The notes: generated by a model from the sequence alone, not told the origin. DNA of 64,000 nucleotides from Chiloscyllium plagiosum (GCF_004010195.1 NC_057718.1:78294935-78358934), one strand, 5' to 3'. Numbered from the stretch's first letter, positions 19,232 to 63,528 are shown. Made by a program: numbers and translations.

Positions 19232-19412
19232 AGCTGAAAATGTATTGCTGGAAAAGCGCAGCAGGTCAGGCAGCATCCAAGGAGCAGGAGAATAGACGTT
19301 TCGGGCATGAGCCCTTCATCAGCTCCTGCTCCTTGGATGCTGCCTGACCTGCGCTTTTCCAGCAAAACATTTTCAGCTCTGATTGCCAGCATCTGCAGTC
19401 CTCACTTTCTCC
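19232..19412. mobile_element. Fold-back Penelope-like terminal remnant (family A)
   Basis: Near-perfect inverted arms; exact 17-bp duplication ctaacacttaaacaagc at 19218-19234 and 19412-19428. Confidence 0.88.
19295..19322 (-). ncRNA. Minimal hammerhead ribozyme motif (antisense to IGF2R)
   Basis: Minus strand reads CUGAUGA-A-GGGC-UCAU-GCCC-GAAA-C-GUC; intact core, helix I poorly paired. Confidence 0.7.
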
Positions 19413-21049
19413 TAACACTTAAACAAGCCCAGTCTATTGAAAATAATTAGCTGGTCTTCTGTAACATTTCAACAAGTTGATTTCATGAGCGAGACTATTG
19501 TATCATGCCAAATAGAAGCACTGGTCAGTACAGGGGGCAACAATAAAAACAGGTGCCTGAAGTCGAGCAACACTGAAATATGCAAGGATCCAGCCAGGGT
19601 TCAAGATGCATAGTGGGCTCAGCAAATTTTCCCTGGAAATCTCTTAAATATCCTACAAAAATTCAGTGTTGGGACCAAAAGAAAATTGAAGGATCGTTTT
19701 CCCCCCTCTTGCCTTATTATGCAATAAGCGTAGATGAAATCTTTGAACAACTCCTCCAATCTCAGATTTATTTTTCCCATGTTGCTTCTCCAGATTCTCC
19801 AATCATGGGTCCCTTTGCTCCTATTTTAAAATTTTTTGAGTGTCCTTTTTATTTTGCTGGACTGTTCAGTTTTCAGAGACAGCTGTAAGGTTTAGATGTT
19901 CAGAGCCAGGCCTGAAATGTAGGTAAACCCTTGAGCACCTATTTGCAGATGATCAGCTGCAAGTGGTGTTATCTCAGCTGTTTCTGACCAGCTGCAGCAT
20001 TTCCATGATGGTCATTTAAGCAGGGCTCCAACCTTGACACACACCACAGTAGTCCTCGTGCACTATGCACTGTTTAGTGTGTGCAATTGATGGATAACTG
20101 GGAACAACTGCTGTTTGCCTGAACAAGTACCAGATGCTAGAGCGACTGCGTATCGAGGAGCCACTGTGCTCTGCCAATGGAGGTTTGATAGGCAGAGATT
20201 CTGGCCTGTGATAGGTCCATTCCCATTTTCAACTGGGGTGTTTCCTCCTTGGAGTCACTGGCCCTGTCTTGTATCAGTCCATGGTCTCTTTGTCCCCCTG
20301 TACTCTAGTGGGGGGGGGAGGGGGGGGAGAAAGAGAGAGATGATAGTGTACTAACCTGTGGCCTCGTTATTAATTCTGTTTAGTAACTTGGAAGGAATTT
20401 TGACCTCTGTATCCAGCTGTATTTTAATGGAGTGTTTCTGTAAACATGGGTAGCATTTGATAATTGGGAAAGGGTTCCTTTGGTATTGGATGGAAATCTG
20501 GAGACCTCAGCATTAGGGTGGTTCTGTGATTTAGGAAATTGAGATTTCTATCTGGAGGTTTGGGAATGTATAATGTGCTTTACATTCTTGAGGTGCAAAT
20601 TGTTATTTTGGTTCTGCTTTTCAATGAAGTCAACACATGGAGTTAAGATTTGTTAGATTATGGCTATTGTAGAGAAATTACATTTTCAGAGTTTGTGTGG
20701 AACACGGGCAAGCAGGTGAACTGAACTTTAAACTGCCATATTCCCCAATTCCACATGTTTTTACTAGTTAGCTTCCTTCCATTCTACCAACAACACACTC
20801 TCTTGGTATCCTCACCACCAATTCCTATCATCTGTGAACCTGTTGGTATCAGTATTCTGGCAGATCATCTATCTAGTTTGGTAAAAATTCAAACTAAGTG
20901 GGGGAAAGGCATCAAGTAAGGTGATGTGCTAAAGTAAATAGAAACAAAGAAATAGTGCATGACAACAGTTCAGGTAATGAATATGTGCAGTATTTGTCAA
21001 AAGGAAATGAACTATTGGCACAAATAAGTGTAACCTGGTGTGATTTACT

Positions 21050-23330
21050 GAAACCTGATTGAAAGGCAATCACGATTGGAACCTAAATATTCATAGGTAT
21101 TTGACATTGTGAATGACAGGATACTAGAACAAGATAGTAGGGTAGCTGTGTTAGTTAAGAAAGACATTAGTTGGGGGATAGTGTTTGATAGGTTAAGATG
21201 TGGAATCATAAAGCGAGTGAGGAGTAATTTGTAGCCTCCCACCCCAGCCCATCTGGCCCAATAAGAACAATAGTTAGACTGCGGGACAGGAAGAAGTGAG
21301 ACAAGAAATTAACAGTAATTTTGCATGAGTAACCTACACATTGATTTGGAGAACTAGATTGGCAAAGGAAGCCTGCATACTAAGTATTGAAAAAAAGCAA
21401 CTGTGTGGATATTAGTTGCATTGATTTCAAAATTTTCAAACAATAGACTGGCGTGTCTGACATCGGTGGTGGCCAAGTTGTTGGAAGGACTCCTGAGGAA
21501 CAGGATTTACATATATTTGGAAAGGTGAAGATAGATTAGGGATAGTCATCTTGGCTTTGCATGGGGAATCGTATCTGACTAACTTGATTGTTACTTCAAA
21601 AAACTGAGGATTGAGGACAGAGCAGTGGATGCGATCTATATGGACTTCAGTAAGGCAATCAACATGATAGACTGGTTAGCACAGTTAGATCTCATGGAAT
21701 GCGGGGAGATCTAGCTGCTTGGATACAGGACTGGGTGGTGTTGAAGGGTTACTTTACAAATTGGGGGTCTGTAACCAGTGGTGTGCAACAAGGATTGATG
21801 AGTCCACTGCTTTTTGTTCTAACTACCAGAGAGTTTGCACCCTGATAGCCATTGATTCCAGTTTTGCTAGGGACTCTTGATGTCACATTCAGTTGAATGC
21901 AACCTCTGTTAAGGGCTGTCACTCTCTCCTCACCCTGAATTCGGTTCTTTGTACATGTTTGAACCAAGGATGTAATGAGGTCAGGAGCTGAGTGGCCCTG
22001 GTGGAACACACTTGGGTGTCTCTGAGCAGGTGGTACTTGATAGCACTGATGATGACATCTTCCATCACTTTACTGATGATCAACAGCAGATGGTTGGGGT
22101 GGTAATTAGCTGGGTTGGATTTGTCTTTTTATGAACAGTACATATTTGGGCAGTCTTCCACACTGTTAGGTAGATGCCAGTGTTCTAACAGTACTGAAAT
22201 AGCGAGGGGAGTGACACATTCTGGAGTCTTCAGTATTATTGCTGGAATGTTGTTAGGGTCCATAGCCTTTGCAGTATCCAGTGCATCAACAGTTTTGTGA
22301 TATCACGTTGAATAAATTGAATTGGCTAAAGACTGATGTCTGTAATGCTGGGGACCACTGGAGAAGGCCAAGATAGATGATCCCCTCCACACTTCTGAAG
22401 ATTGCTGCGAAAGCTTCAGCCTTATCTTTTGCACTGCTTCTCGACTACTGGCATCTAAAATAATTATTTGGGTGAAGAAACCAAATGTGTCCTCACTAAA
22501 TTTATCAATGACATCAAGATATGTAGGAAACTTAAGTTTGTGAATCGATATCGACAGGTTTTAAGTTGACAATAAATGTGGCAGATGGAAAATTCAGAGC
22601 CTGTCTGTTTAGATGGGGAGAATAGTGAGCTATATGCTAGATGAAAGGAGAGAGATTTTAGGATAGTGATGCAGAAACCTCTTGGTGTCCCAGTATATGA
22701 TTTGCATAAAGTTACTATGCAAGTACAGCCAGTGAGCAGGAAGACAATGGAATGCTGTTTTGCAAGATGAATGAAATACAAATGGGAAATTCTGCTGTAG
22801 CTATACAAAGTGCTGGTGAGACCATATCTGGAGTACTGCATGCAGTTTTGGTCTTGGTTTTTGATAAAAAGATAGTTGAATTAAAACAGTTCAGAAGATT
22901 TACCTGACCCATTCTTGGGGTGACTGGATTAGCTATGAAGAAAAATTGAACAGATTAAGCCTGTACTAGGAGTTCATTACAGTGTAGAAAAATGAGATCT
23001 TGTTGAGACACTATCTTCAGCAAACTGGGTAAGGGGGTACCCATAGTGTTTTTTTTGTGGAGGAAACCAAAGCTACAGCTCAAATTTAACATTTGTCATT
23101 TTTAAAACACTTTTATTTTCTCTCTCAAAGGATAATGTATATGGGATTCTTCCCAGAAGTTAGAGGAGACTGGTTCTTTAAGGTTGAGTTTTTTTTGATG
23201 GACAAGTAATGGGATGCAGACGGAAATGTGGAACTTGAGCCACAACCAGATCAGCTATGTACTTAATGAATGGTACAACAGTCTTGAAGGGCTGAGAGCC
23301 TACACATGGTCATAAGTGCTATGCTCGTTG
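21050..23330 (+). mobile_element. Cluster of decayed CR1 fragments with nested insertions
   Basis: Old CR1 pieces (21050-21445, 22440-23330) with a younger CR1 RT piece (21450-21822, atggacttcagtaaggc) like 12922-13310. Confidence 0.65.
21825..22440 (-). mobile_element. LINE RT fragment, second CR1/L2-group family
   Basis: Minus strand FHQGHSAPDLITSLVQT...ERVTAL, followed in another frame by a decayed AF..V.HQ..LAKLESMG RT motif. Confidence 0.75.
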
Positions 23331-24541: not shown

Positions 24542-24936
24542 ACATTGGGGGAACAGCTTCCAACTTGATCAACTGTATTCGGGGAATTCAATAAACTGCA
24601 TGCACGTATTATGTAAAATGGCTGGGAATTTACTCCAAATACTCTGAAAGCTTATTTTAAAATGGTAAATTTGAAACCAGGGTTTTGAAGCTTTTCCAGT
24701 TCATGGTGTCATATTTGTATTAATGAATCAAAGGACTTGAAATTATGTATTTGGAATGCTTGGTGTTGGTGGCATAGTTATAAGTAATTAACCTCAATGT
24801 ATGCTACAGCATTAATTGCATAGTACAAAGCAAGTTATTAGTAAAATGGGCATTTCAAAGCAAATTAATACTTGTATTCAAAATGAAAATAGTCTGAATA
24901 AGGTTGCTGCTTCAATAACACATATTTTATCCTTAG

Positions 24937-25071
24937 GGGATCTGGAGAGCCCTCCTATCCTGAAACCTGGGATCAATGAATGTTTGCATGAACTGGAATG
25001 GCGCACAGCTGCTGCTTGTGCTTTATCCAAAACAAATGGTGATGATTGCAGAGTTTCAGATCCAGAGGCCG
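24937..25071 (+). CDS. IGF2R: IGF2R exon 6 of window, domain 4/5 junction
   Basis: ttag|GG...G|gtaagc; DLESPPILKPGINECLHELEWRTAAACALSKTNGDDCRVSDPEA; 135 nt. Confidence 0.96.
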
Positions 25072-25837
25072 GTAAGCATCTTAAACTAAAGTGCACTTAA
25101 GATTTCTAAATTTATTCTTCCAAATGTATGTAAGCGTTAATAATGAAACCATTTAAAATGGTCATAATTCTTCAATTATGTATGACCAATTGAGGTTTTG
25201 AGTGTGAATGTCCATTGTTGGTACTATTGTAAGCTCTAAAACAAAACAGCGAAAGGGAGCAAGCCTAATGTTACTTGCACCACCCTCATTCCCCAAGTTT
25301 ACCAGACGTGCACAATTTTCCCAAATGATAGTCAGTGTTGTACTATTTTTTTTCTATTGCTATTTTTGCTTTAAAGGAATTTTTTTTTGAAACCCAAGCA
25401 CTAATTCTTTAATACTAGCCATTGTCTCTAATGTTAAACCTGTTGGTGTTTTTCCAGTTCACCACAACAAACATCCTCATACCTCCATAGTTGCTCTCTA
25501 TTAGATATAGATCCTAGTTATGGATTGAACCATGTCATTGTTGAACTTGATGGAAAAGACTATCATACGATGTTCAATATTCCTTTAAAAGTTGTTTTGC
25601 ATCAAGATTATTAGTTCGTTCTCATTGCATGGTACTAGATCTAAAATAGCTTTTGCCCTTGTTGATTCCTCAACATGTTACTCTGGTAAAGTCTTTCAAA
25701 CACATTCCAAGCAATCTTCATTTGCAACATTATTCCTTACTACTTCTATACAGCCTGAATGTAAATTGAAGCTACGCATGATTGCAGCATTCACTGTTAT
25801 ATACCCTTCTATTTTCTTGGTTTATACCATGTCCTAT

Positions 25838-28036
25838 GTCAATAGACAATAGGTGCAGGAGTAGGCGATTCAGCCCTTTGAGCCAGCACCACCATTCATT
25901 ATGTTCATGGCTGATCATTCACAATCAGTATCTTGTTCCTGCCTTATCCCCATAACCCTTGATTTCATTATTTAAGAGCTCTGTCCATCTCTTTCTGTAA
26001 AGTAACCAGAGACTTGGCCTCCACTGCCTTCTGGGACAGAGCATTCCATACATGCACCACTCTCTGGGTGAAGAAGTTTCTCCTCAACTGTGTTCTAAAT
26101 GGCCTATTTTGAAACTGTCTCCTCTGGTTCTGGGCTCACCCATCAGCGGAAACATGCTTCTTGCCTCCAGAGTGTCCAATCCTTTAATAATTTTATACAT
26201 CTCAATCAGATCCCCCTCTCATCCTTCTAAACTCAAGTGTATACAAGTCCAGTCGCTCCAATCTTTCAACATACGATAGTCCCGCCATTCTGGGAATTGA
26301 CCTAGTGAACCTATGCTACACTGCCTCAATAGCCAGAATGTCTTTCCTCAAATTTGGAGACCAAAGCTACACACTATATTCCAGATGCGGTCTCACCAGG
26401 GCCCTATACAGCTGCAGAAGGACCTCTTTGCTCCTATATTTAATTCCTCTTATGAAGGCCAGCATGCCATTAGCTTTCTTCACTGCCTGCTGTGCCTGCA
26501 TGCTTACTTTCATTGACTGATGTATAAGAACACCTAGATCTCGTTGTACTTCTCCTTCACCTAACTTGATTTAGATAATAATCTGCCTTCCTGTTCTTGC
26601 CACCAAAGTGGATAACCACACATTTACTCACATTAAACTGCATCTGCCATGCATCCGTCCACTCACCTAGCCTGTCCAAGTCACCCTGTATTCTCATAAC
26701 ATTCTCCTCCCATTTCACCCTGCCACCAGCTTTGTGTCATCAGCAAATTTGCTAATATTACTTTTAATGCTTTCATCTATATCACTATATATTGTAAACA
26801 GCTGTGGTCCTAGCACTGAATGATGTGGTACCCCACTGGTTACTGCCTGCTGATCCAAAAGGGACCCGTTTATCACTACTCTTTGCTGCTTGTCAGTCAG
26901 CCAATTTTCAATCCAAGTTAGTACCTGGCCCCCAATACCATGTGCCCTAATTTTGCTCACTAATGTCCTATGTGGGACCATATCAAAGGCTTTCTGAAAG
27001 TCCAGGTACACTACATCCACTAGCTCTCCCTTGTCCATCTTCATAGTTACATCCTCAAAATTCCAAAGATTAGTCAAGCAAGATTTCCCCTTTGTAAATC
27101 CATGCTGACTGACCTATCCTGTTAGTGCTATCCAAATGAGTTGCAATTTCATATTTCTAAATGACTCCAGTATCTTTTCCACCACTGACGTCAGTCTTAC
27201 TAGTCTATAATTCTGTTTTTTTTCTCCCTTCCTTCTTGAAAAGTAGGACAACATTAACCACCCTCCAATCCACAGGAACTGATCCTGAATCGATAGAACA
27301 TTGCAAAATGATTATCAATGCGTCCACTATTTCTAGAGCCACCTCCTTAAATACCCTGGGATGCAGACCATCAAGTACTGGGGACTTATCAGCCTTCAGA
27401 CCTAACAGTCTACCCAACACCATTTCTTGCCTAATATAAATTTCCTTCAGTTCATCCATTACCCTAGGTCCTTCAGCCTCAATTACATCTGGGAGATTGG
27501 ATCTGTCTTCCCCAGTGAAGACAGATCCAAAGTACCTATTCAACTCTTCAATTTCCTTGTTCCCATAATAAATTCATCTATTTGTCTTCAAGGGCCCAAT
27601 TTTAGTCTTAACCATTTTTTTCTTTTCAGATACCTAAAAAAGCTTTTACTATTCTCCTTCATATTTTTGGCTGGTTTGTCTTCGTACCTCTCTTTCTCTA
27701 AATATTGCCTTTTTAGTTATCCTCTGCTCTTTAAAGGTTTCCCAGTCCTCCGGCTTCCTGCTGATCTTTGCTACTTCTCTTTTATCTTTATACAGTCATT
27801 AACTTCCCTCGTCAGCCATGGCTATCCCTGCCTCCCCTTAGCATCTATCTTCCTCTTTGGAATGAACTAGTCCTGCACCTTCTGCGTTATATCCAGAAAT
27901 ATCTTCCACTGCTAGGGTATTGAACCATTGACCTTTGACCAGCTCTTCTCTGAGCTCTATAGTTCCCTTTGTTCAACTGCAATACTGACCCTCCCGATTC
28001 TCCCTTCTCCCTCTCAAATTGTAGATTTACACTTAT
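25838..28036 (-). mobile_element. CR1 LINE, 5'-truncated ORF2 relic
   Basis: ORF-track fragments ADKSPVLDGLHPRVFKEVA, VYLDFQKAFD, SGVP..SVLGP, KFADDTKL; tail caatagacaatag. Confidence 0.93.
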
Positions 28037-28387
28037 ATTATATAACGTAGAACAATATAGCGCAGAACAGGCCCTTCGGCCCTCAGATGTTGCGCCGGCC
28101 TGTGAACTATTCTCAGCTCGTCCTCCTACACTATCCCAAAATCATCCATGTGCTTATCTAAGGATTGTTTAAATCTCCCTAATGTGGTTGAGTTGACTAC
28201 ACTAGCAGGTAGGGCATTCCACGCCCTTACCACTCTCTGCATTAAAAACCTGCCTCTGACATCTGTCTTAAATCTATCACTCCTCAATTTGTAGTTATGC
28301 CCCCTCATACACACTGATGTCATCATCCTAGGAAAAAGACTTTCACTGTCTACCCTATCTAATCCTCTGATCATCTTGTATATCTCT

Positions 28388-29089
28388 GGATGTAGGTTTG
28401 CTCGCTGAGCTGAAAGGTTCATTTCCAGATGTTTATTACCTTAGTAGGTAACATCTTCAATGGACCTCATGCGAAGCAATGCTGAAACTTCCTGCTTTCT
28501 ATTTGGTTGGGTTTCTTTGGCGAAGTCACTTCCTGTTCCTTTTCTCAGGGGGTGGTAGATGGGGTCTAACCTGATGTTTGTTGATAGTTCTGGTTGGAAT
28601 GCCATGCTTCTAGGAATTCTCGTGTCTTTTTGTTTGGCTTGTCCTGGGATGGATGTGTTGTCCCAGTCAAAGTGGTGTCCTTCCTCATCCGTACACTCAC
28701 TAGTATCCTCACATACAGATGAAGAAGGACACCACTTCGACTGGGACAATACATCCATCCTAGGACAAGCCAAACAAAGATGCCTGAGAATTCCTGGAAG
28801 CATGGCATTCCAACCGGAGGTCTATCAACAAACACATCGAATTAGACCCCACCTACCATCCCCTGAGAAAAGGAACAGGAAGTGACTTCACCGGAAATAA
28901 CATACCAAAGGAAATGGCATCACCAACCCAAAGGAACCCAAACATAGCAGGAAGTTTCAGTATTGCTTCGCATGAGGTTCACTGAAGATGTTACCTAGTA
29001 AGGTAATGAAACGTCTGGAAATGAACCTTTCATCTCAGCGAGCAAATCTGCATCCAAAACCTCAACCTGAGCTACAAATTTTCTCAAAA
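28388..29089. mobile_element. Fold-back Penelope-like element (family C) with endonuclease C-terminal relic
   Basis: ~300-bp inverted arms, both encoding EEGHHFDWDNTSI.GQAKQ..REFLEAWHSN; duplication cttgtatatctct (28375) / cttgtacgtctct (29090). Confidence 0.88.
28978..29019 (+). ncRNA. Minimal type I hammerhead ribozyme motif (sense to IGF2R)
   Basis: uuca-CUGAAGA-U-GUUACCU-AGUA-AGGUAAU-GAAA-C-GUC-ugga: helix I 4 bp, helix II 7 bp, ACGU palindrome, predicted cut after C29015. Confidence 0.8.
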
Positions 29090-29642
29090 CTTGTACGTCT
29101 CTATCAAATCCCCTCTTAGCTGCTGCCTTGCCAATGAGAACAGGTTCAAGTCTCTCAGCCTTTCCCCATAAGACCTTCCCTGCAGACCAGGCAACATCCT
29201 CGTAAATCTCCTCTGAACCTTTTCCAGTGCTTCCACATTCTTCCTGAAATATGGGGACCAGAACTGTACACAATATTCCAAGTGTGGCAGTACCAGCGTT
29301 TTGTATAATTGCAACATGATATCGTGGCTCCGAAACTCAATCCCTCTACGAATGAAACCTAACATGCCGTATCCCTTAACAGCACTATCCACCTGGGTGG
29401 CAACCTTTAGGAATCTATGTACATGGACTTCAAGATCCCTCTGCACATCCACACTACCAAGAATGGTCACTACCTCCTGATGGCTCCTTTGCTTCACCAA
29501 ATAAAATGGTATATAAACCAAACCATGTTTGCTGCCACTTCCTGTTTCTGCTTGATTCTTCCAATCTGAGATCCTCTCACTGATATTCTGACCCCATCCC
29601 TCATCAGCACTACCCAACTCTGTTTTCCTTTCAATGGTAGCC

Positions 29643-30115
29643 ATGATGTGGAGGTGCCATTGTTGGATTGATGTGGGCAAGGTCAAGTCACAATGCGCCA
29701 GGTTGTAGTCCAACAGGCTTATTTAAAATCACAAGTTTTTGGAGCACTGCCCTTTCATCAGGTGAAGCAAAGGAAAGCATACAGGCACAATTTATTGGCA
29801 GAGAGATCAAGATTGTACAAATAGTGAGAGGAGTGTCGACAGGCTGAATGGTAAGTCTCAGCAGGTGATCGACAATGTCAGATGGTGAATAAAGTGTCAA
29901 AGGCTGAATAGTAAATGAAAGGGATGACCAATGATCCAGCTAATTGAGGCAGAGGTAATTACAAATAAGGTGTGCTGGAGACAAACCTGAAGGCTGGGAA
30001 TAACATGATCGATGTAATGGTTGCCTGCTAAGGATCTGATCAAAGTAACGAGTAGTCCGAAACCCTACAAACTAAGATAGCGATCAGTTTATCAAGGTGA
30101 TGTTGTTAAAACTGG
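29643..30115 (-). mobile_element. Penelope-like 3' terminal region (family B-related), degenerate hammerhead
   Basis: Minus strand cac-ctgatga-aagggcagtgctcc-aaaaact-tgtg (GAAA mutated) followed by the family B terminal sequence. Confidence 0.7.
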
Positions 30116-30116
30116 A

Positions 30117-31245: not shown

Positions 31246-31249
31246 TGTC

Positions 31250-31536: not shown

Positions 31537-31544
31537 ACTTCTAC

Positions 31545-32228: not shown

Positions 32229-32403
32229 TCTGACACCAGGTTATAGTCCAACAGATCCATTTGAAATCACACGCTTTCGGAGTGTTAGCCCTTCTCCTGT
32301 TGACGGGGCAGTGCTCCGAAAGTCTGATTTCAAATAGACCTGTTAGACTATCATCTGACTTCTGACCTAGTCCACCCCAATCCAACATCACCACCACGTC
32401 GTC
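32229..32403. mobile_element. Fold-back Penelope-like terminal remnant (family B)
   Basis: Inverted arms tatagtccaacag...gctttcggag / ctccgaaag...ctgttagactat; hammerhead-like ctgttga-cggggcagtgctcc-gaaagtc (A6 mutated) at 32297-32324. Confidence 0.75.
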
Positions 32404-33689: not shown

Positions 33690-35094
33690 GTAAGTGACCA
33701 TTGGTTTGGTGCAACCAGTGTGTTTGTATGAATTTGTTCGTGAATTTGGTACACTGAATACATTGACTATGGAGAGCATAGGAATGTATTAATCTGTCGT
33801 TTTTCTAAATGCAACATGCTACTTTTCTATAAAATTATTTGCTGACAGTCTCTTGAGATGCACATTGATGTCGCTCTGATTTTTTTAAGTTATGGATTTA
33901 AGGGTTATTTTGTGTTGATATTTAGTGTCATTCTGGCTTAATTGTGTTATTGCTAAAACTAGTGGCGTGTGTCACCCCTAGGATCATGCTGAAATACAAG
34001 CTAACTTACTGTCTCCTCTACCCCATCTCCAACAGCAAGTAAGCTACACTCTTGAATTGCAGCATTACCAAGATGAAGACCACCTAATCAGCTGTTTCTG
34101 TCACTTCTTTCCTTAGCCCCTCAAATCAAACTTCCTGTAAGGGTCTCCTGAGGGGTGATAATTATCTGTCCATCAGCTCTAAAGTCATGAACTTTTGCAT
34201 TAATGCAAGCTGCTGTCCCATTTCTGACTTCTCATGTGTCTCCAGTCTTGGAGCACATTGTCATCTCCCAAACTGGTGCCCATCTCTCCAGAATTTTGTA
34301 TTTGAATCCTGCTCTTGCTCTCTATATTCTGAAATGTCATTTAGTCAAGTTATAAATCGCATCTTATCTGACCGTGATACCTCCAACAATTTCAATAGCA
34401 TCCATTGACAAAGTTGATCACTCCAACCCTCTGTAATTTCTCTCCATCACCATCCAACTGGGTGAAAAATGCATTCAGCTGATCCCATTCCTTTTTATTG
34501 CAGCCAGAGAATTGCCATCAATTGCATTTATTTTCAGTTAATTCCAGTATACCTTGATCTATGTTTGGATCCCTCCTAATTGTATGTATGTTGCTTGGCA
34601 TTGTCAACTGAAAACAGATCAGCTTTTACATGTACACCCTCTTTTCACGTCTACTGTCAGACAGGCAGCTTTGGGTGAGCAAACATTGCCTTCAATTCAA
34701 TTCTTAGAAGATGGCAGCCTTATTATAAATCCGTGCTCCCTCACTGCGATTCAACACCCGACCTGGTAACACTCCAGCCACCATTTTGGAATTACATTTG
34801 ATCGGAAAATGAGTTTTCTGCATGATTGCTCAGACCGCTCATTTCCTCCTCCTAACATTTTCCAGTTTCTTCTGCTCCATATGTAACTTAGTACCATTTT
34901 GTTCTCCATGGAGTTTTATGTTCAGTAAATAAAAGTTGTTCTATTTCTGCTGTTGAAGAAAGCTACTCCACTCACTTACAAAGATCGGAATGTTGAAATT
35001 ACTACTTGTTGTCCAGTTCGTACCTGCCCTGCATATCTGATGTGACGCTGATCATCTCCTGTTTTTGTGTTCTAATTATGCGTTTAATCCTTAG

Positions 35095-35272
35095 TGATCA
35101 AACCTTTTGGAACCTAGGGGAGTCCAATTCGAGATTGTCATACTATGATGGGATCATTCATCTGGTTTATACAAATGGGACAGCATACAACAATGGGCAG
35201 CACGTCAGACGATCCACACACATAACATTCCTGTGTGATCGAGATGCAGGTGAAGGACATCCAGAATTTGAG
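35095..35272 (+). CDS. IGF2R: IGF2R exon 8 of window, domain 5
   Basis: ttag|T...GAG|gtcagt; [59 protein letters not shown]; 178 nt; phase 2/0. Confidence 0.96.
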
Positions 35273-38042
35273 GTCAGTTATTAGACTTCTGTATGGGCAA
35301 GTTGATACTAAAAAACACCAGTCCTTTCACTGACTTTGTTTGTTTAGTACTGTTGCCTGATAATTTCCAGTTTAGAGTTTTAGTAAGCAGTTAGACGAAA
35401 CCCTATTTTAGGATCTTTGCTTCATTTGTGAGCTGATGAAATTAATTTCTCAACTTGTTAGAACCTATTAACCTGACTGGTGAGCCATTGCAATAAGTCT
35501 GAGGGAATGAAAGCATTTTCAAAATTGTGCATTCACTTACTATTGAAGTTGGTCATTTTTGAATAGGATTTGCTTTAAAAAAAATTCATGTCATGTTTCT
35601 TGGCTCCTTAATAGCTTCCTTCCAAGTTCCAAAGTTTTTCAAATTCTCAAATTGTGATGAAAAGGAAAGCAAATGCAGTGTTAGCAAATTCATGAGGGCT
35701 AGAATACAAGCGCAGAGATACTGCTGAGGCTGTATAATACTCGAGTGAGACCACATTTGGAATATTGAGGGCAGTTTTGGGCCCTGTATCTCGAATAAGA
35801 ACGTAGATCAATACAGCACAGAACAGGCCCTTCGGCTCTTGATGTTGCGGCGACCCGTGAACTATTCTCAGCTAGTCACCCTACACTATTCCAAAATCAT
35901 CCATGTGCTTATCTAAGAATTGTTTAAATCTCCCTAATATGGCTGAGTTGACCACCTTCACAGGTAGGGCATTCCACGCCCTTACCACACTCTGCTTAAA
36001 GAATTTGCCTCTGACATCTGTCTTAAATCTATCACCCCTCAATTTGTAGTTGTGTGCTCTCGTACAAGCTGACATCATCATCCTACGAAAAAGTCTTTGT
36101 CTACCCTATCTAATCCCCTGATCATCTTGTATGTCTTTATCAAATCCCCCCTCTTAGCCGCCTTCTCTCCTATGAGAACAGACCCAAGTCTCTCAGCCTT
36201 TCCTCATAAGACCTTCCCTCCAGACCAGGCAACATCCTGGTAAATTTCCTCTGCACCTTTTCCAATGCTTCCACATCCTTTCTGTAATGGGGTGACCAGA
36301 ACTGTACACAATATTCCAACTGTGGTTGCACCAGTGTTTGTATGCTGGTTCCAGAACTCAATCCCTCTACCAATGAAACCTAATGCACCATGTGCCGCCT
36401 TAACAGCACTATCCACCTGAGTGGCAACTTTTAGGGATCCATGCATATGGACTCCAAGATCCCTCTGCACATCCACACTACCAAGATTCTTTCCATTGAC
36501 AAGTACTCTGCCATCCTGTTATTCTTCCCAAAGTGCATCACCTCACATTTAGTTGCATTGAACTCCATTTGCCACCTCTCAGCCGAATTCTGCAGTTTAT
36601 CCAAGTCCCCCGCAACATTCTTCCAAACTGTCCACTACTCCACCGACTTTAGTGTCGTCTGCAAATTTACTAATCCATCCACCTATGCCTGCGTCTTTGT
36701 CATTTATAAAAATGACCAACAGCAGTGGTCCCAAAACAGATCCCTGTGGCAGACCACTAGTAACTGTACTCCAGACTGGTTTCCATCAACCACCATTTGC
36801 TGCCGCCTTCCAGAAAGCCAGTTTGTAATCCAAACTGCTAAATCACCCTCCATTCCATGGCTCTGCATTTTCTCCATCAGCCTACCATGTGGAATCTTAT
36901 TAAAGGCTTTACTGCAGTCCAAGTATAACACGTCAACTGCCCTAACGTCATCTACATGCTTGGTCACCTTCTCAAAAAACTGAGGTTTGTGAGACACGAC
37001 CTGCCCTTGACGAAACCATGTTGACTATCTGAAATCAAATTGTTGCTTGCTAGATAAATCTTATCTCTTATAATTCTTTCCAAAACCTTTCCTACAACAG
37101 AAGTAAGGCTCACCGGTCTATAATTACCTGGGTCATCTCTGCTGTCCTTGAACAAGGGTACAACATTTGCAATCCTCCAGTCCTCAGGTACTAAACCCAT
37201 AGACAATGACGACTCAAATATCAAAGCCAAAGGCTCTGCTATCTCCTCTCTAGCTTCCCAGAGAATCTTTGGATAAATCCTATCTGGCCCTGGGGACTTG
37301 TCTATTTTTGCTCCTTCTAGAATTAATAACACCTGTGTGTAACTAACCTTGATCCTTTCTCGTCTAGTATCTTGTACGTCTTTCTTCTCTACAATATTTT
37401 CCTTTTCCTGAGTGAACACCAATGAGAAATGTCCATTTAGCACCTTTCCGATCTCTACAGGGTCCACACTCAACTTCCCACTTCTGTCTTTGGCCCTATT
37501 GCTACCCTAATCATCCTTTTATTCCTCACATACCTATAGAAAGCTTTAGGGTTCTCCTTTATTTTATTTGCTAAAGACTGCTTGTGTCCTCTCTTTGCTC
37601 TTCTTAACTTTCTCTTTAAATCCTTCCTAGCTGATCTGTAACTCTCCATTGCCTCATCTGTACCATCTTGCCTCATCAACACACAAGCCTCTTTCTTCTT
37701 AACAAGAGATGCAAGTTCTGTCGTAAACCACGGTTTCCTTACCTTATCACTTCCTCCCTGCCTGACAGACATACCTATCAAGGACATGCAATATCTGTTC
37801 CTTAAATCAGCTCCACGTTTAGATTGTCTGCATCCCCTGCATTTTGCTACCCCATTCTATGCATCTAATTCTTGCCTAATCGCATAATAATTGCCTTTGC
37901 CCCATCGATAACTCTTGACCTGTGGCATGTACCTATCCCTTTCCACTGCTAAACTAAACGTAACTGAATTGTGGTCACTCTCTCAAGTGCTCACCTGAAC
38001 TACATCGAACACCTGGCCTGGTTCATTACCTGGTTCATTACC

Positions 38043-42318: not shown

Positions 42319-42417
42319 GTAAGGAAATTTCCCTTTTACCACCTCTTTACTTTACAACTATTTAACAATGCCTAGTTTCCAAAGCAGCGGAATATTTCAT
42401 GGCATGTAGGAACACAT

Positions 42418-44553: not shown

Positions 44554-44806
44554 TGGAAATAAAGCAAGACCAATTGTATCAATTCTCAGACCACATGGCC
44601 AATCAGCATGTTCCTCTTTTGCTATATAAAATGGTATCCCTTTGCTCAACTGTTTCTGTTCCCCCAATTCTGAATGCAAGGTGTAATATTCAACTTTGTT
44701 TCCTTTTAACAATGTTTGTTTATATTTAACATGCTTCTTGGAGTTTTTTTTTTGCTTGTGCTAATTGTCAGGTTAGAGATAGAAATGCAGTCAGTAAACT
44801 TAGGGT

Positions 44807-45184
44807 GAAAGTGAGGGCTGCAGATGCTGGAGATCAGAGCTGAAAATGTGTTGCTGGAAAAGCACAGCAGGTCAGGCAGCATCCAAGGAACAGGAGAATC
44901 GACGTTTCGGGCATAAGCCCTTCAGGAATGAGGAAAGTGTGTCCAGCAGGCTAAGATAAAAGGTAGGGAGGAGGGACTAGGGGGAGGGGCTTTGGAAATA
45001 CGATAGGTATTTTCTATTGCATTTCCAAAGCCCCTCCCCTAGTCCCTCCTCCCTACCTTTTATCTTAGCCTGCTGGACACACTTCGCTCATTCCTGAAGA
45101 AGGGCTTATGCCTGAAACATCGATTCTCCTGTTCCTTGGATGCTGCCTGACCTGCTGTGCTTTTCCAGCAACACATTTTCAGCA
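44807..45184. mobile_element. Young fold-back Penelope-like remnant (family A)
   Basis: ~170-bp highly similar inverted arms with ~7-nt spacer near 45010; exact taaacttagggt at 44795-44806 and 45185-45196. Confidence 0.9.
45092..45123 (+). ncRNA. Hammerhead motif, CpG-eroded (sense)
   Basis: CUGAAGA-A-GGGC-UUAU-GCCU-GAAA-C-AUC; helix III palindrome lost (ACGU to ACAU). Confidence 0.55.
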
Positions 45185-45463
45185 TAAACTTAGGGTACGC
45201 AGCATGAGTTCTGATCTTTGTTTCTAATGTTTGGAAATTGCATACAATACATGCTCATATGTTTGGGAAAGAACTTGCTGACTTGGCAGCCCTGCAAATT
45301 ACCCCTTTGATTTTAGTATTCTGTTGGGATAAACAGAAATCACGTGTAGAATTAATGTCAGGCTTGACTTGATTGATAGTATTATGTATTGCTTTGACAG
45401 TATAGCTTTGCATTTCCTTGTGGGATGACCATGCTAATGGTTTTAATTGTGTACTTTCTCTAG

Positions 45464-52708: not shown

Positions 52709-53602
52709 GTAAGCAAGTGATTTGATGATTCATTAACTAGAAGATGGTAAATATTCTTTGAACCACCCACAAAATCAGAAATGCATTTGATTTATTGAGG
52801 TTTTCTCATTACATGAAACTGGACAAATCTGCATTCTAATTTGTATCATGCTGCTTAAATATTATGAATTATGAGATCATAAAGACTAAACTTTTTGCAT
52901 TTCATAATAAACAACAATTTATTGTAATCAGTTAACACATTTTAAGTTACGCCAAGAGTTGCGTCACAATATAATCTAATGAGTAAAGTTTACTGTGAGA
53001 TTTATTTTTATACTCTATCTACTTGGAGTGGGGGGATACACTAAGTCTTGTGATGACACTCTTCTTTCAATCATAGGTTATAAGCATCACTGACTAGTTC
53101 AGAATTTATTGCCCATGCCTAAATATTCTTAAAATTGTGGATGCGAGCTGACTCGTAAACCACTGGAGTCATTAGGGTGTGGGGTTAAATGGAGTTTCAA
53201 GATTTTGATCCAGTGACTGATGCAGCAATGGTTTAAAGTCAGGATGGAATGAGATTTACATGGGAATTTGGAGGTGGTGCTATTCCTATGCATCTGCTGA
53301 CCTTGCCCTTGGTGGTAGTGGTCATTGCTTGGGAAGTGTTGTGAAAAGAGCCTGGGTGTGTTGAAGTGTGCATGTTGGAGGTGGTCTATGCTGCTGCATT
53401 TGTGCTTCAGTAATGGCAGGGATCGTGCCTTGAAGAAACACCTTTATACTTTCGAGCAGGGGCCTGTGTTCTGGCAGTATGCTTCACAATATAAATTATT
53501 AGATAATATATTTAGCATTAGACAAAACAGTACTATTTGGGTCAAATAAATAGTCAGTAAATGGATACGGTATTATTGGCTGGTTTTATTTTTTTGTTTC
53601 AG

Positions 53603-53746
53603 ATATAGCTGGTAATGAATATGATCTGAGTGACCTTGCCAGGGACAAAGAACCTTGGGTTGCAGTAGACACGACGGAAGATAGAAGTAAACGTACATTT
53701 TATCTAAATGTTTGTAAGCCTTTGCCTTCAGTTCAGGGCTGTCCAG
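53603..53746 (+). CDS. IGF2R: IGF2R exon 16 of window, domain 8
   Basis: tcag|AT...G|gtgagt; [47 protein letters not shown]; 144 nt. Confidence 0.96.
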
Positions 53747-54485
53747 GTGAGTGTAAACATATACAGATCATTGTTTTTGTTGATGAATAACTTTTGTTTG
53801 TTGATGCAGCATAGCACACCAACTGTGCAGTAAGAAAATTAGATGGCGATCAGAAAACGTTTTGGAAGGATTTGTTTTTATGAGCATAATAAACATTGTT
53901 TAGACCTAATCTGTATGCTTGGCAGTAGCTCTTAAAGAGTAACGGTTTTAGCTTAAAAGACCATTAAATGATGTGATACAAGTTTAAGAATGTCAATCAG
54001 GCAATAACTCAATGCAAGTCACTAATTCCTTCCATCGTGAAACAGGAAAAGAAAGTTGGCTCCTACTTCGAGGAAGTCAGCTTTCACCCTGGTCAATGAA
54101 GTGTGCAGTTTCTCGAGTTACTGTCACCATAGGTTGCGTTGTATCCTCAACCATGGCTTCTGCTTACATAGTCATAACTACCTCATTTCCTACTGCCTTC
54201 CACCATCATCTCCCCCTCACGTGAAGGGAGCTGTGGGGAAAACTGGAATCGCAATGGGGGGGGAGAAGGAGAGTGAGACAGTGCTGAGGTCATTGAGAAG
54301 AAGCAGGGGAGCTGAACGAGCATTAAAGAGCCTCAGGAAGGATCTGTGGAGGGAGGTGGCAGGAGGATATAAGTGAACCAGTTAATGTTTGTTTATATTA
54401 AATGCTTTCTGTAAATCTATTGTCTCAAAATATTATCGCGCACAACAGGAGCTCATTGTATTGGGTAATAGCACAGATTGAGGAT

Positions 54486-56128
54486 AGAGTCTGTCATAGA
54501 GATGTACAGCATGGAAACAGACTCTTCAATCCAACCTGTCCATGCCAACCAGATATTCCAACCCAATCTAGTCCCACTTGCCAGCACCCCGGCCCATATC
54601 CCTCCAAGCCCTTCCTATTCATTTACCCATCCAGATGCCTTTTACATGTTGCAATTGTACCAGTCTTCACCACTTCCTCTGGCAGCTCATTCCATATACA
54701 TACCACCCTTTGTGGAAAAAAGTTGCCCCTTAAGTCTCTTTTATATCTTTCCCCTCTCACCTTAAGCCTATGCCCTCTAGTTCTGGACTCCCCCCACCCC
54801 AGACTTTTGTCTATTTATCCTATCCACGCCCCTCAATTTTGTAAACTACTTTAAGATTGCCCCTCAGCCTCCGATGCTCCAGGGAAAACAGCCCCAGCCT
54901 GTTCAGCCTCTCCCCATAGCTCAAATCCTCCAACCCTGGCAACATCCTTGCAAATCTTTTCTGAACTCTTTCAAGTTTCACAACATCTTTCTGATAGGAA
55001 GGAGACCAGAATTGCGCGCAATATTCCAACAGTGGCCTAACCATTGTCCTGTACAGCTGCAACATGACCTCCCAACTCCTGTACTCAATACTCTGACCAA
55101 TAAAAGAAAGCATACCAAACACCACCTTCACTATCCTATCTACCTGCAACTCCACTTTCAACCTGCACTCCAAGGTGTCTTTGTTCAGCAACACTCCCTC
55201 GGACCTTACCATTAAGTGTATAAGTCTTACTAAGGTTTGCTTTCCCAAAATGCTGCACCTTGCATTTATCTGAATTAAACTCCATCTGCCACTTCTCAGC
55301 CTATTGGCCTATTTGATCAAGATCCCATTGTAATCTGAGGTTACCTTCTTCACTGACCACTACACCTCCAATTTTGGTGTCATCTGCAAACCTACTAACT
55401 ATACCTCTATGCTCACATTCAAATCGTTTATGTAAATGACAAAATGTAGATGACCCAGCACTGATCCTTGTGGCACTCCACTGGTCGCAGACTTCCAGTC
55501 TGGAAAAACAGCCTTCCATCACCACCCTCTGTCTTCTACCTTTTGAGACAATTCTGTATCCAAATGGCTAGTTCTCCCTTTATTCTGTGAGATCTAACCT
55601 TGTCAACCAGTCTCCCATGGGGAACCTTGTTGAACGCCTTACTGAAGTTCATATAGATCACATGTACCACTCTGCCCTCATCAGTCCTCTTTGTTACTTC
55701 AAAAAAACTCAATCAAGTTTGAGACATGATCTCCCATGGACAAAAAAATGTTGATTATCCCTAATCTGTCCTTGTCTTTCCAAATATATGTACATCCTGT
55801 CCCTCAGGAATCTCTCCAATAACTTGCCCACCGCTGATGTCAGGCTCACTGGTCTATTGTTCCCTGGCTTGTCCTTACTACCCTTGAAGAGTGGCACCAC
55901 GTTAGCCAACCTCCAGTCTTCTGGCACCTCAACTGTGACTATTGATACAAATATCTCAGTAAGAGGCCCAGCAATCACTTCTCTAGCTTCCCACAGAGTT
56001 CTCTGGTACACCTGATCAAATCCTGGGGATTTATCCACCTTTATGCTTTCAGGACATCCAGCACTCCCTCCTCTGTAATATGGATATTTTGCAAGGTGTC
56101 ACCATCTATTTCGCTACTTTTTATATCT
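54486..56128 (-). mobile_element. CR1 LINE, RT to 3' tail
   Basis: DKSPG.DQVY, PGN.RPVSLTS, RFADDTKIGGVV, VRPLLEYCAQFWSP...RVQKRFARMLPGL. Confidence 0.93.
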
Positions 56129-59500: not shown

Positions 59501-59960
59501 TAACGTCTGCATTCTTGGATTATGTTCCATTCATATCTTTACTGCCGTTCACATTAATCAATTAGTTGCTTTGTTTTATTGGGTTTGGATATTACTTTTC
59601 ATTGTAAACATGGCTCATTTTTCTGACTGAGCATCCAAAGGGATGCAAGTTTTTGAGAAGTATTGACACGAGGGGGGAGTATACCTAAAATGGAATCAAT
59701 GTCTTGGTCATTTCTGAAACCCTTGCCATCATTGCAGCATGTTGGCTTAACTGTGGAGAGAACAGAATCCGTGTTATATATAATGCCTATGTTTGTCTGT
59801 TATCAGCAGCAAAGATGGTTCATTACCAATAAATTGGTTGGCTGGGATCTGCAGTTTCTTCCAGTTTATATGAACCAGTATTTTGATGAAAGATCTCAAA
59901 CTTGTGTGAAAATAAGTATGTAAGCAAAAGATTTTCTTCAAATTAAATTATGTTGCACAG

Positions 59961-60136
59961 GTGGTGCTATTGGATCTTGTGTCAAGTATGCTGATAAAAG
60001 CCAGAGTCTGGGCTATATTCAGATGAGTCCAAGGGCTGAGACTGGTTCACTCAGTATTGTCTATTTGAATGGGGATAATTGCAACGACCATCAGAAATAT
60101 TCTACACGAATCCTCTTCCAGTGTGACACAATCTCA
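59961..60136 (+). CDS. IGF2R: IGF2R exon 17 of window, domain 8
   Basis: acag|GT...TCA|gtaagt; GAIGSCVKYADKSQSLGYIQMSPRAETGSLSIVYLNGDNCNDHQKYSTRILFQCDTIS; 176 nt. Confidence 0.96.
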
Positions 60137-61727
60137 GTAAGTTTGTATTTTTTTTAAAACATACACAAACTTATCACTAACACATTTTAATCCTTGCCAA
60201 ACTTTTTCTCGATGTTGACCCCAATTTATTGCCCCAGATATCACATCCCATGTGAAATTTTGGCATACACGTGTAGGAATTGGGTTGCTTTTAGTTGTGA
60301 GGAGGGGCAGGATAGGCTTTAGCTGTCTAGAGTAGAGTTGTTGCCTTTACAGCATTATTTTCCTTCATGCACAAAGGAATATGCTTTATATACAATCCAA
60401 TCGAAAATCCTGACTTTTGGAATTTAAGGGTGCAGCTGCCAGTGTTTTTAGATTGTGGTGTTTTTGGTCATATTTTAGCGCTAATTAAGAACAATGATCC
60501 AGTATGCAGTCACTAAAACTCTGCAACTCGTTATTTGAAATTTAGCCTCAGCGTGTTACCCGCAGATGTAAAAAACTAATTTTACTGAAAAGCTTGCCTT
60601 TCGAGCCCTTTGTAGCAGAATTCTGATCTCAAAGGGATCTATCTGTTGGGCCGTCACCGCAAAGAGAAAATGACAAGTGTTTAATGGGGCCTTGCAGTTG
60701 TTAATATTCAGTCATTGTTGCCCAGGAGTTTTGTCTTACAAAATCTCAGCTCATAGTTTGGAAAGCTCTGCTTTTGATCTTTACAAAAAATACATAATTA
60801 TTACATTTAGTGAATAGTCCAACTTGGAACTGCCATTTAATATTAAGAGGTAGATATCTATACAGACCTAATTTTATTGCAGTCGTTTGAAGCATTAATG
60901 TTTGTGATGTGGATGTCTCTCATTCAGAAGCCCATGAGTCTGCTGGAGCCTTTGAATCAAGCTACTCAGACCTGTATTAATGTGTGCTTGCTGGTCATAG
61001 TGCTTAATTTGCATATGCACAAAGGAACCTGGGGGGGTATGGATTAGTAATAGCTTGGTTTCAGTAATTGCTTACAATTATAAGACTAAAGCTAAATTGG
61101 TTAAAACTTTTTCAGATTGTCAATGCAGTTAATTTGTCTAAACATGTATTTCTTGTTAATATCTCTAACAGCCCTTTCAATGCTGTTGTGTGCTCAACTG
61201 TAGCCAGGCAAATGGAAGCACAGGCATTTTGTTCATCTGACAGGACATATCTTCCCTGTTTTGCTAATTGGATTTTACTACTAAGTAGCAGAAACCTAAT
61301 TAAAAAACTGAAATATTTGTCACTCTTTATTTTCAACTAAATGATCCAAACTTTTGTTTTTGAGAGCCATCACATCGAAGTTAGTTTGTTACTCTGCATA
61401 TAAAGATTACCTTTTAGATCGCCCCCTGTTGCGTTTCTGTTTTGAGGAAGGAAAATTCAGCTACCCTCATCAACTTCATAAAATCACACAGGACAGAAGT
61501 AGTATCTGGGCCTGTTATATCAATCCCCACTGCTTGAAGTGGTATCCAATCAATCCTGCATGCTAGCTATTTCTCTAACTTTGCAAAACGTTCCTTTTTC
61601 AAGTCTGTTCAGGATTCTTTTTTGTATTGATTCTTCTTCCTTTCCTCTTATCTGTAACCATTGCATCAAGTACATCTGAGAGAGTATGTGAAATTTAGGA
61701 TAATAATTGTATTGTTTTTCCCCATAG

Positions 61728-61815: not shown

Positions 61816-62636
61816 GTAAAATTTGATAATATAGTTTAGTCATGAAAAGCATATGGCAAAAATTTAGAGTTTTTGAATTGCTTGTCCATCATGAATCAAC
61901 TCCAAAGATAATCTTGAGAGTTCAGAGTATCAAGAGGTCAATGTCAGTGCTGGCTATTCTTTGATCTTTCTCGTCAGCATTCAATCCAGTCTTACCAATC
62001 TTTGATATTCTGATTTAAACAATAAACAGATGAAATATGGGTAGACTTGTATAAGTGGGGCATTATGTTAGGTTCTGTTAATACTGGAAATAAAACACCG
62101 GTTTTAAAGTGGCTTTGGGAGGTTGGAAGAGTGCCAGAAAATGAAATTCAAAGCATAGATCCCTTTTTAATGTTTATAAAACAAAATTGCTTTAGGCATT
62201 TGATATTGAATTATGCCTGTATGTTGGTTATTTGGCCTTGAGAAGATGGGCATAGCAACCTAGAAAATGGTTTTTCTGGGGTTCACCATTTTCCTGCAGT
62301 ACAGAAGCTAAGGTTAATTATTTGCTACTCCTACCATGCACCCAACTCAACCCATTTAACACCACCATCTATTTTACTGTCTTACTTAAATAAGGAACTG
62401 AGTTTGTGTTCTAGGTTTGTAACTAAGTGGATGGTGTATTTACGTAGACACAGGAGATTGCTAAGGTTCTAACACATTCCTCCCATGACTGAACTTTGAC
62501 TCTGCCACCATCCCTTCATGCATCTTTCTCCAGAATGTCTGTTCACTTAGGGGCAAGGTCTTTTCTAACAGAGAACAAGTAATGAAGTTAGAAATCACAG
62601 AACACCAGGTTATAGTCCAACAGGTTTATTTGAAAG

Positions 62637-62671
62637 CACTAGCTTTCGGAATGCTGCTCCTTCATCAGGTG
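62637..62671 (-). ncRNA. Minimal hammerhead ribozyme motif (antisense)
   Basis: Minus strand cac-CUGAUGA-A-GGAG-cagca-UUCC-GAAA-G-CUA-gug; AGCU palindrome. Confidence 0.72.
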
Positions 62672-63493
62672 ATTGTGAAGAATAAGATTGTTAGACACAA
62701 TTTATAGCAAAAGTTTCCAGTGTGATGTAACTGAAATTATACAGCGAAAAAGACCCGAATTGGTGAGACCAAATAGACTATGGCAACGGATGAATGGGCA
62801 CCGCAGAACAATCAACAGGCAGGAGTGTTCTGAATCGGACAACACTTCAGTGGTCCAGGACATTCGACCTCTGACCTTCAGATGACCTCCGAGACTGACT
62901 TCGGGACAGGCAACAATAAAAAGTGGCCGAGCAGAAGCTGATAGCCAAGTTCGGTACCCATTCGGATGGCCTCAACCGGGAGCTATGGTTCATGTCACAC
63001 TACAGGTGACCCCATTGCACTATACACACAAATGGACAGACTGACCCTGCACCCCACCCCCCACAGACTTCAATCCCTTTACACACACTCCCTCTCATAC
63101 GCACTCATAATCCATGTGCACACATTTGTGGGGTGAATTTGTACTTGCAGAATTTTACTTTGCTCAAAAACTGCATGAGCTCATGTAAGATTTTGAAAAT
63201 CCGTTTTTAAGATTAGGTTCAATCTGACCATTGGCACAGACAGCCTCACGGAGTTAACACCTTGAATACCTTATCTGGACTGACTTGACACCAATTGTTA
63301 AAGTGCCCTTGAAAATGTAACTTCTTAAAAAAGTTTTGTGATTTACATATGAAAGAACTGATACCAACATAGTCATTCTAAGAGATGAGAGACTTAACAA
63401 ACAATTTGGTCTTTTATCAATATATAATTTCAGTTATATCACACTGGAAACTTTTGATATAAATTTGTATCTTACAATCTTACTCTCCACAAC

Positions 63494-63528
63494 CACCTGA
63501 TGAAGGAACAGTGCTCCGAAAGCTAGTG
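63494..63528 (+). ncRNA. Minimal hammerhead ribozyme motif (sense)
   Basis: cac-CUGAUGA-A-GGAaC-AGU-GcUCC-GAAA-G-CUA-gug; 3-bp helix I, AGCU palindrome, predicted cut after A63525. Confidence 0.75.

Follow-up and report, generated by a model that had tools for sequence, protein, structure and literature searches.

Hammerhead motifs in IGF2R introns of the shark Chiloscyllium plagiosum: probable minimal ribozymes of Penelope-like elements

What are the hammerhead-like motifs that recur, with unrelated stems, through the introns of a receptor gene in a shark? The question is raised by a 64,000-nt stretch of the Chiloscyllium plagiosum genome (GCF_004010195.1 NC_057718.1:78294935-78358934, one strand), hereafter the window, which holds exons of IGF2R, the cation-independent mannose-6-phosphate receptor. 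A preliminary description had listed six such motifs and placed them in three families (A, B and C) of minimal hammerheads of Penelope-like elements (PLEs). Our analysis arrives at the same identity: the motifs are very probably minimal type I hammerhead ribozymes (min-HHR) of endonuclease-bearing PLEs, located in the terminal repeat, as argued by the published layout, by PLE insertion marks and by PLE-type open reading frames (ORFs) upstream of the motif in genome copies. The window copies are mostly dead PLE 3'-end fragments in IGF2R introns; the class is already known, and copy number is the sole striking point.

In the accessible text of Cervera and de la Peña (2014, PMC4209133), a min-HHR is laid out as CUGANGA, an unpaired base, helix II, GAAA, a 4-nt palindrome in place of helix III, and NUH. 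All six listed motifs were recovered at their positions, and the layout is present in 6/6:

19322-19295, minus strand: family A, CUGAUGA-A-GGGC/GCCC-GAAA-CGUC
38047, plus strand: family A, as the preceding motif but with N7 = A
45094, plus strand: family A, GGGC/GCCU and ACAU, with a G.U first helix II pair and a broken palindrome
62668-62640, minus strand: family B, GGAGC/AUUCC, helix II short of one pair
63497, plus strand: family B, GGAAC/GCUCC, helix II with an A.C mismatch
28982, plus strand: family C, GUUACCU/AGGUAAU, first pair G.U

These six are the only ones among 17 hammerhead-bearing arms in the window that keep all core letters (6/17), and three of them (19322-, 38047+ and 28982+) look wholly intact, 62668- being short of one helix II pair. 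The family B stem had been given as GGAGC/GCUCC, which neither window copy carries on both sides, but which is indeed the family form, with 16,625 exact matches in the genome.

Helix II measures 4 bp in family A, 5 bp in B and 7 bp in C, and is preceded by an unpaired A, A and U, respectively. Outward from the core, its pairs run G-C/G-C/G-C/C-G in A, G-C/G-C/A-U/G-C/C-G in B and G.U/U-A/U-A/A-U/C-G/C-G/U-A in C, and reading the motifs side by side shows that pairs 2-4 are altered on both sides between families, in agreement with the claim that helix II varies yet pairs. The families are also distinct in the sense first proposed, as a core 11-mer (A/B) and an 8-mer (A/C) are the sole sequence that they have in common, and the identity of family ORFs to one shark protein is 65-84% for A and 46-49% for B. 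The palindrome is ACGU in A and C and AGCU in B, with no helix III, and the predicted cleavage triplets are of the GUC type or, in family B, CUA. Helix I, by direct reading, has ~2 bp in A (UC/GA), 3 bp in B (CAC/GUG) and 4 bp in C (UCCA/UGGA); in the window C copy it is UUCA/UGGA, with pairing retained.

Chance recurrence was assessed with a descriptor of our own, whose loose form requires CTGANGA, then a helix II with three or more pairs, with or without an unpaired base in front of it, and finally GAAA, and whose strict form adds the 4-nt palindrome and an H after it. The window contains 8 loose and 5 strict matches, compared with means of 0.68 (maximum 3) and 0.035 (maximum 1) in 200 first-order (Markov-1) shuffles in which dinucleotide content is roughly preserved, and with 1 loose and 0 strict matches in the reversed window, which bears out the earlier view that chance is unlikely. 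Seven of the eight loose matches are members of the three families; the remaining one, at 21493, lies outside all of them and is probably a chance match.

The motifs resemble the min-HHR of PLEs, as these appear in the accessible text of PMC4209133, in their CUGANGA core, unpaired base, helix II of 4-7 bp and short helix I, in the lack of a helix III and the presence of a palindrome that permits dimers, in a CGUC-type site as in the lamprey and cichlid alignment rows, and in an arrangement of mostly solitary copies or opposite-strand pairs 100-700 bp apart, with several families per genome. Family B, with its AGCU palindrome and CUA site, differs from the min-HHR published there.

Further support comes from the insertions that carry the motifs. 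According to the accessible part of Craig et al. 2021, endonuclease-bearing PLEs show heavy truncation at the 5' side and, next to the unit, an inverted copy that is itself 5'-truncated, and PLEs have a tail of 30-40 bp, often at one end only. Comparison of the window by BLAST with reference units, which are single intact genomic copies, resolved ~15 insertions comprising 21 arms, 17 of them with hammerhead sequence, plus two scraps. Eight insertions belong to family A or its relatives, six to B and one to C, and ~7 of the 15 are fold-backs (given below as unstranded):

19295-19322, minus strand: family A minimal hammerhead, with core, helix II GGGC/GCCC and ACGU intact
19232-19413, unstranded: family A fold-back of two 91-nt arms, tail on the right arm only
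38042-38177, plus strand: family A single unit with tail and an intact hammerhead at 38047-38074 (N7 = A), inside a minus-strand long interspersed nuclear element (LINE)
44804-45185, unstranded: family A fold-back with palindromic centre 44959-45060, tail on the left arm, none on the right
44455-44554, plus strand: family A unit with short 3' end, decayed hammerhead at 44463
43759-43873, minus strand: family A unit with tail and decayed hammerhead, 74% identity to the reference unit
14474-14619, unstranded: family A insertion, a tailed minus arm reaching helix II, then a 20-nt plus-sense stub
10483-10566, plus strand: family A 3' fragment that stops short of the hammerhead
42455-42570, unstranded: old fold-back from a family related to A, its hammerhead-like centre decayed and bearing another helix II
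62585-62743, minus strand: family B unit with short 3' end; hammerhead 62668-62640 with intact core, 4/5 helix II pairs, AGCU and CUA
63424-63614, plus strand: family B unit with tail; hammerhead 63497-63525 with intact core and A.C mismatch, followed by AAUAAA, in host-gene sense
16615-16852, unstranded: family B fold-back, decayed hammerhead
29644-29765, minus strand: family B unit, decayed hammerhead (G12 gone)
32233-32387, unstranded: family B fold-back, both hammerheads decayed
3859-4014, unstranded: family B fold-back, decayed hammerhead at 3930 (CUGUUGA)
28387-29091, unstranded: family C fold-back of ~705 nt with hairpin centre 28658-28749, tail on the right arm, none on the left

This inventory adds to the preliminary description the family A arms 10483-10566 (+), 14474-14590 (-), 43759-43873 (-) and 44804-44933 (-), the family B arms 3859-3890 (-), 16615-16796 (-), 16820-16852 (+) and 32233-32282 (-), and the family C arm 28387-28621 (-). 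It also accounts for six sites that had been called decayed: 3930 (B, +), 29765 (B, -), 32293 (B, +) and 44463 (A, +) are mutated family copies, and 14600-14604 (A, +) is the 20-nt fold-back stub, so that five of the six are family copies, but the site near 42500 belongs to the older A-related fold-back with another, decayed helix II. The A-like arms of this fold-back (42455-42570), combined with a different helix II, hint at replacement of helix II within one superfamily. Separately, the fold-back centres 44959-45060, 28658-28749 and 19263-19350 draw sub-threshold microRNA-precursor scores in Rfam, reaching 52 bits against cut-offs of 60-97, and such centres are a likely source of false microRNA calls.

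Five of the insertions are bounded by short flanking repeats. The family A fold-back at 19232-19413 has a 16-bp target-site duplication, TAACACTTAAACAAGC, which overlaps both ends of the element; the single unit at 38042-38177 carries a 9-bp direct repeat, TCATTACCA, at its ends; the fold-back at 44804-45185 has a 12-bp duplication, TAAACTTAGGGT; the insertion at 14474-14619 has one of 12 bp, GCTTGATACACT, at which its stub ends; and the family C fold-back at 28387-29091 has a 12-bp flanking repeat with 10/12 positions matching. At 44804-45185, the right-arm hammerhead (45094-45121) is damaged by a G.U pair and ACAU and the left-arm one, near 44930, has lost 3 nt of CUGANGA, and at 28387-29091 the plus-strand hammerhead (28982-29015) is intact and its minus-strand mate (~28428-28460) is dead (C3 to U, G12 lost).

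The ends of these units follow the PLE pattern. In the window, all fold-backs in which both arms reach the 3' end carry a tail on one arm only (3/3: 19232-19413, 44804-45185 and 28387-29091), and the insertion at 14474-14619 has its tail on the long arm, the other arm being the 20-nt stub. Genome pairs lie on opposite strands, their 3' ends pointing outward. In genome loci sampled by hammerhead pattern (8 of family A, 30 of B and 30 of C, 68 in total), family B 3' ends fall at +83 to +100 in 16/30 loci and at +120 to +140 in 12/30, with 2/30 earlier, family C 3' ends at +75 to +84 in 8/30 and at +108 or beyond in 21/30, with 1/30 earlier, and family A shows the same two alternative ends, ~35 nt apart. 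Two alternative 3' ends separated by 35-40 nt are therefore present in all three families, which is the 'tail' feature of PLEs, and the hammerhead begins ~75-100 nt before the nearer of the two. Truncation at the 5' side is variable, upstream homology extending over 1-531 nt in B and 16-728 nt in C, and the combination of strong 5' truncation with an adjacent inverted truncated copy is likewise a PLE feature.

Elsewhere in the genome, the same units are linked to PLE coding sequence, with the ORF upstream of the hammerhead and on the same strand in all of the links described here. For family A, locus L012 contains a decayed ORF with a YIDD-type reverse transcriptase (RT) followed by a CxxC...LLYIGET endonuclease piece, a family A hammerhead ~440 nt past the ORF, and an inverted tailed arm just 5' of the ORF. 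The RT piece has 79% identity to a shark protein and 49% to protein P0136, in which RVT_1 and GIY-YIG score above Pfam cut-offs, and the endonuclease piece aligns to P0136 residues 365-501, the GIY-YIG end, with E = 3e-21; both P0136 and P0141, relatives of the L012 pieces, carry RVT_1 plus GIY-YIG. For family B, PLE ORF pieces at 526-1223 of locus L075 run into a B unit with its hammerhead at 1569 and an inverted mate at 412. For family C, locus L073 has an open piece with a GIY-YIG-like stretch, ...VIYKIPCKDCNKQYIGQTGRKL..., ~330 nt upstream of the hammerhead. These ORF links are strong for A and B and weak for C. Three sampled loci show units meeting other elements: in L017, a family A arm in inverted orientation lies directly against the 3' end of the B unit, the C unit of L070 is inserted in another PLE's ORF, and a tRNA-like short interspersed nuclear element interrupts the B unit of L019 ~50 nt past the hammerhead start.

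The preliminary description had anticipated a very large and probably unannotated repertoire. The size was understated: the A-type motif, with free loop and free N7, has 87,506 exact genome matches, the B motif with free loop has the 16,625 mentioned above, and the window C 34-mer is matched 1,530 times when as many as 2 mismatches are allowed, 67 of these being exact, the reversed control giving 0 in each case. A 20-mer from the family A flank matches the genome 165,276 times, and a perfect A hammerhead lies upstream in 38 of the first 100 plus-strand cases, at a distance of 44-45 nt in 37 of them and of 67 nt in one. Set beside the ~4,000 motifs of coelacanth and ~9,000 of Xenopus in PMC4209133, the ~10^5 pattern-perfect motifs here are many more, in a comparison that is rough since descriptors differ. 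The expectation that the motifs are unannotated holds for Rfam-based annotation and fails for repeat annotation, PLEs being already listed as repeats of shark genomes in the accessible part of the literature.

The intronic setting is defined by nine plus-strand open frames in the window that match the CIMR repeat (Pfam), one of them weakly, and every motif copy falls between CIMR-matching frames, as the assignment to IGF2R introns had implied. Host exons and other retroelement remnants in the window are as follows:

15562-60154, plus strand: IGF2R exons (context), from CIMR matches
15562-15825, 17918-18145, 18716-19087, 24816-25097 and 34997-35281, plus strand: first five CIMR matches (Pfam)
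41579-41878, 42142-42372 (weak), 53554-53787 and 59924-60154, plus strand: last four CIMR matches (Pfam)
36707-38441, minus strand: LINE remnant with RVT_1 and Exo_endo_phos endonuclease, enclosing the family A unit 38042-38177
26718-27113, minus strand: LINE remnant with CR1-like RT, adjoining family C and most similar to CR1 proteins from bird, turtle and shark
55712-56098, minus strand: LINE-type remnant, weak RT match

The RT remnant at 26718-27113, beside family C, was considered as a PLE ORF and rejected as CR1-like.

Several observations weigh against assigning the motifs to PLEs, or against their being competent ribozymes. The window contains no PLE ORF, its three RT remnants being LINE-type and one of them CR1-like; the ORF link of family C in L073 rests on a tblastn match with E = 1.4e-4 over 31 residues; and the endonuclease pieces of L012 and L073, which are short and decayed, draw no GIY-YIG call from Pfam. 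A genome scan for GIY-YIG, in which 150 of 14,403 candidates were scored, yielded one weak match (L009), a decayed PLE ORF end, and a PLE protein match was found in just 6/68 pattern-chosen loci, 3 of these 6 being on the opposite strand or in another element. A count of 6/68 is predicted by heavy 5' truncation, and it also leaves room for non-autonomous lineages. The 5' ends themselves pose a difficulty, as an end 1-19 nt upstream of CUGANGA recurs in 5/30 B loci and the family A copies 38042 and 44455 likewise start just upstream of the motif, at ~-5 to -8; random truncation does not account for this recurrent end. It sits upstream of the ribozyme cut site, not at the cut site. With regard to the fold, the window C copy has G.U at pair 10.1-11.1, normally G-C, helix I is short, though inside the published range of 2-5 bp, and Rfam returned 0 hits for the window at its gathering threshold, while relaxing the limit to E = 10 brought out no hammerhead family. 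The canonical type I hammerhead families of Rfam, Hammerhead_1, HH9 and HH10, share with the window motifs the catalytic core letters and the order of helices I, II and III; unlike them, they have a closed helix III, and no model scores any window copy. Thermodynamic folding of monomers and dimers reproduced no hammerhead fold and is uninformative as a test.

RNA data add a further point of this kind. Raw reads of run X21, a poly(A) single-cell data set whose organism bears the same species label as some of the DNA data, were mapped to the family B unit, where 2,407 reads align, mostly as hammerhead-sense RNA. Over the predicted B site, read depth is unbroken, going from 1084 to 1173. No cut is seen in 751 reads that carry a poly(A) tail and whose aligned part (~80 nt median) spans the site and the whole motif. 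Read ends pile up nowhere on the B unit in this library, which is unable to capture cut products, and the uncut reads are therefore no proof against cleavage. The same 751 of 2,407 reads carry untemplated poly(A) after 1626 or 1629, 29-32 nt past the site and 12-15 nt past AUUAAA. Family B units have AUUAAA or AAUAAA 11-16 nt past the hammerhead site (L075:1598-1660; window 63526-63560), and the poly(A) site lies ~25 nt before the shorter genomic 3' end, which means that these RNAs are without the region where copies end. Family B sequence is also present in contigs X1 and X5 (presence only). A second run, X22, placed 0 reads on the unit and carries no weight.

PAc, a Poseidon-type PLE of Anolis carolinensis (Frangieh et al. 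2024, PMC11167929), is one of the closest comparisons. In this anole element, cutting and extension affect both strands of the DNA, reverse transcription starts at either of two neighbouring sites, with the tail between them, and the hammerhead lies near these start sites. The marks of the shark copies fit this scheme: the two systems would share two adjacent start sites, which account for the optional tail, and both show an absence of RNA-seq reads ending at the presumptive cleavage site. Unlike PAc, in which the ORF starts inside the hammerhead, the shark elements, which are known from sequence, have the motif ~100-440 nt past the ORF.

The recurrent 5' end can be put differently, by supposing that the short units (~95-135 nt, sometimes tandem) are non-autonomous, retrozyme-like mini-elements with a fixed 5' end that are mobilised by PLE proteins. 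A boundary a few bases before CUGANGA is what such mini-elements would show (the 5/30 B loci and the A copies 38042 and 44455), an ORF of any kind is nearby in only ~9% of pattern-chosen loci, and two family A tandem dimers have units that are 100% identical, with periods of 172 and 153 nt:

L010:2314-2639: head-to-tail family A dimer, period 172 nt, ~2 copies
L011:2183-2488: head-to-tail family A dimer, period 153 nt, ~2 copies

These, together with family A tandem junctions or dimers in L002 and L003, are the only tandem, retrozyme-like arrangements that we saw, all outside the window. Partial tandems that make up a pseudo-LTR are a trait of endonuclease-bearing PLEs. Work by Cervera and de la Peña from 2020 reportedly concerns animal non-LTR (long terminal repeat) retrozymes. 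The shark motifs resemble such retrozymes, as presented in the accessible part of the preprint of Li, Clavereau and Pollet (2026), in being hammerheads of type I carried by short units that are non-coding and akin to the terminal repeats of PLEs, and the family A tandem dimers elsewhere in the shark genome are a further likeness; the preprint traces the non-LTR retrozymes of animals back to such repeats and also counts retrozymes of this kind in its one cartilaginous fish. Retrozymes are, however, defined by tandem arrays and circular RNAs, whereas no tandem copy or array was met in the window, where copies are solitary or inverted. The other 5' ends are spread smoothly up to 531-728 nt, and the same 3' module occurs in ORF-linked copies, so that we regard independent mini-elements as unlikely, if worth keeping in mind.

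Far less probable is that some sense-strand copies are working host elements that cut IGF2R pre-mRNA through the ribozyme or terminate it through the B poly(A) signal. Copies 38047, 28982 and 63497 do lie in gene sense, the 63497 copy retains AAUAAA, and the B-unit RNAs of X21 are polyadenylated 12-15 nt past AUUAAA; but copies occur on both strands and are generic, mostly mutated members of families of thousands, a helix III is beyond the reach of a monomer, the reads are uncut across the site, and nothing ties the poly(A) reads to the IGF2R locus. We attach practically no weight to the idea that the palindromic units are DNA-transposon miniature inverted-repeat elements or fold-back elements, or that the motif recurs by chance. 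Target-site duplications and the microRNA-like, sub-threshold scores of long inverted repeats at three centres would suit a fold-back element, but the arms are unequal, anchored at the 3' side and truncated at the centre, the tail is one-sided, the duplications vary in length from 9 to 16 bp, and single-arm and ORF-linked copies exist; chance is excluded by the shuffles and reversed controls. A broader combined reading, to which we give little credence, would see here the largest vertebrate hammerhead repertoire yet counted, with >100,000 sequence-perfect motifs that are not mere passengers: sense intronic B copies (e.g. 63424-63614), with a poly(A) signal ~30 nt downstream, could end host transcripts early, pairing of palindromes in trans could cut RNA in vivo, and the short units with a fixed 5' end could form a self-standing retrozyme-like lineage.

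If the motifs are min-HHR of PLEs, as we favour, the structure of the insertions could arise as follows. By analogy with the anole element, an RT/GIY-YIG protein would cut both DNA strands and prime from both at two neighbouring internal RNA sites, and the tails may be one-sided because one arm is primed at each of the two start sites. Synthesis would usually abort within a few hundred bases, and as the hammerhead is near the 3' end, early abortion may explain why it is retained in nearly every stub longer than ~100 nt, and in turn why 17 hammerhead-bearing arms lie in an intron-rich 64 kb. Lacking helix III, the ribozyme would cleave only when two copies pair via the ACGU or AGCU palindrome, as might occur on multimeric PLE transcripts, and solitary intronic copies, mostly mutated, would be inert passengers with no IGF2R role. 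A study by Lünse, Weinberg and Breaker from 2016 is said to have dealt with dimer cleavage of PLE hammerheads. Poor cleavage in vitro, and only as dimers or trimers, is described for min-HHR in the accessible text of Cervera and de la Peña (2014, PMC4209133).

PLE minimal hammerheads are known there from lamprey, teleosts, coelacanth, frogs and reptiles; neither the main text nor one searched supplementary file of that study mentions a cartilaginous fish, and no shark hammerhead-ribozyme work is among the matches listed in our literature search. Our findings thus extend published PLE-borne minimal hammerheads to a lineage outside the searchable literature and alter nothing known about the class. 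They indicate that Rfam annotation misses ~10^5 ribozyme-like motifs in a cartilaginous-fish genome, and such debris might affect host genes through the poly(A) site that B units contain. One-sided tails and two-armed intronic insertions would represent a natural record of the two-site, two-strand priming that has been seen in vitro for the anole PLE.

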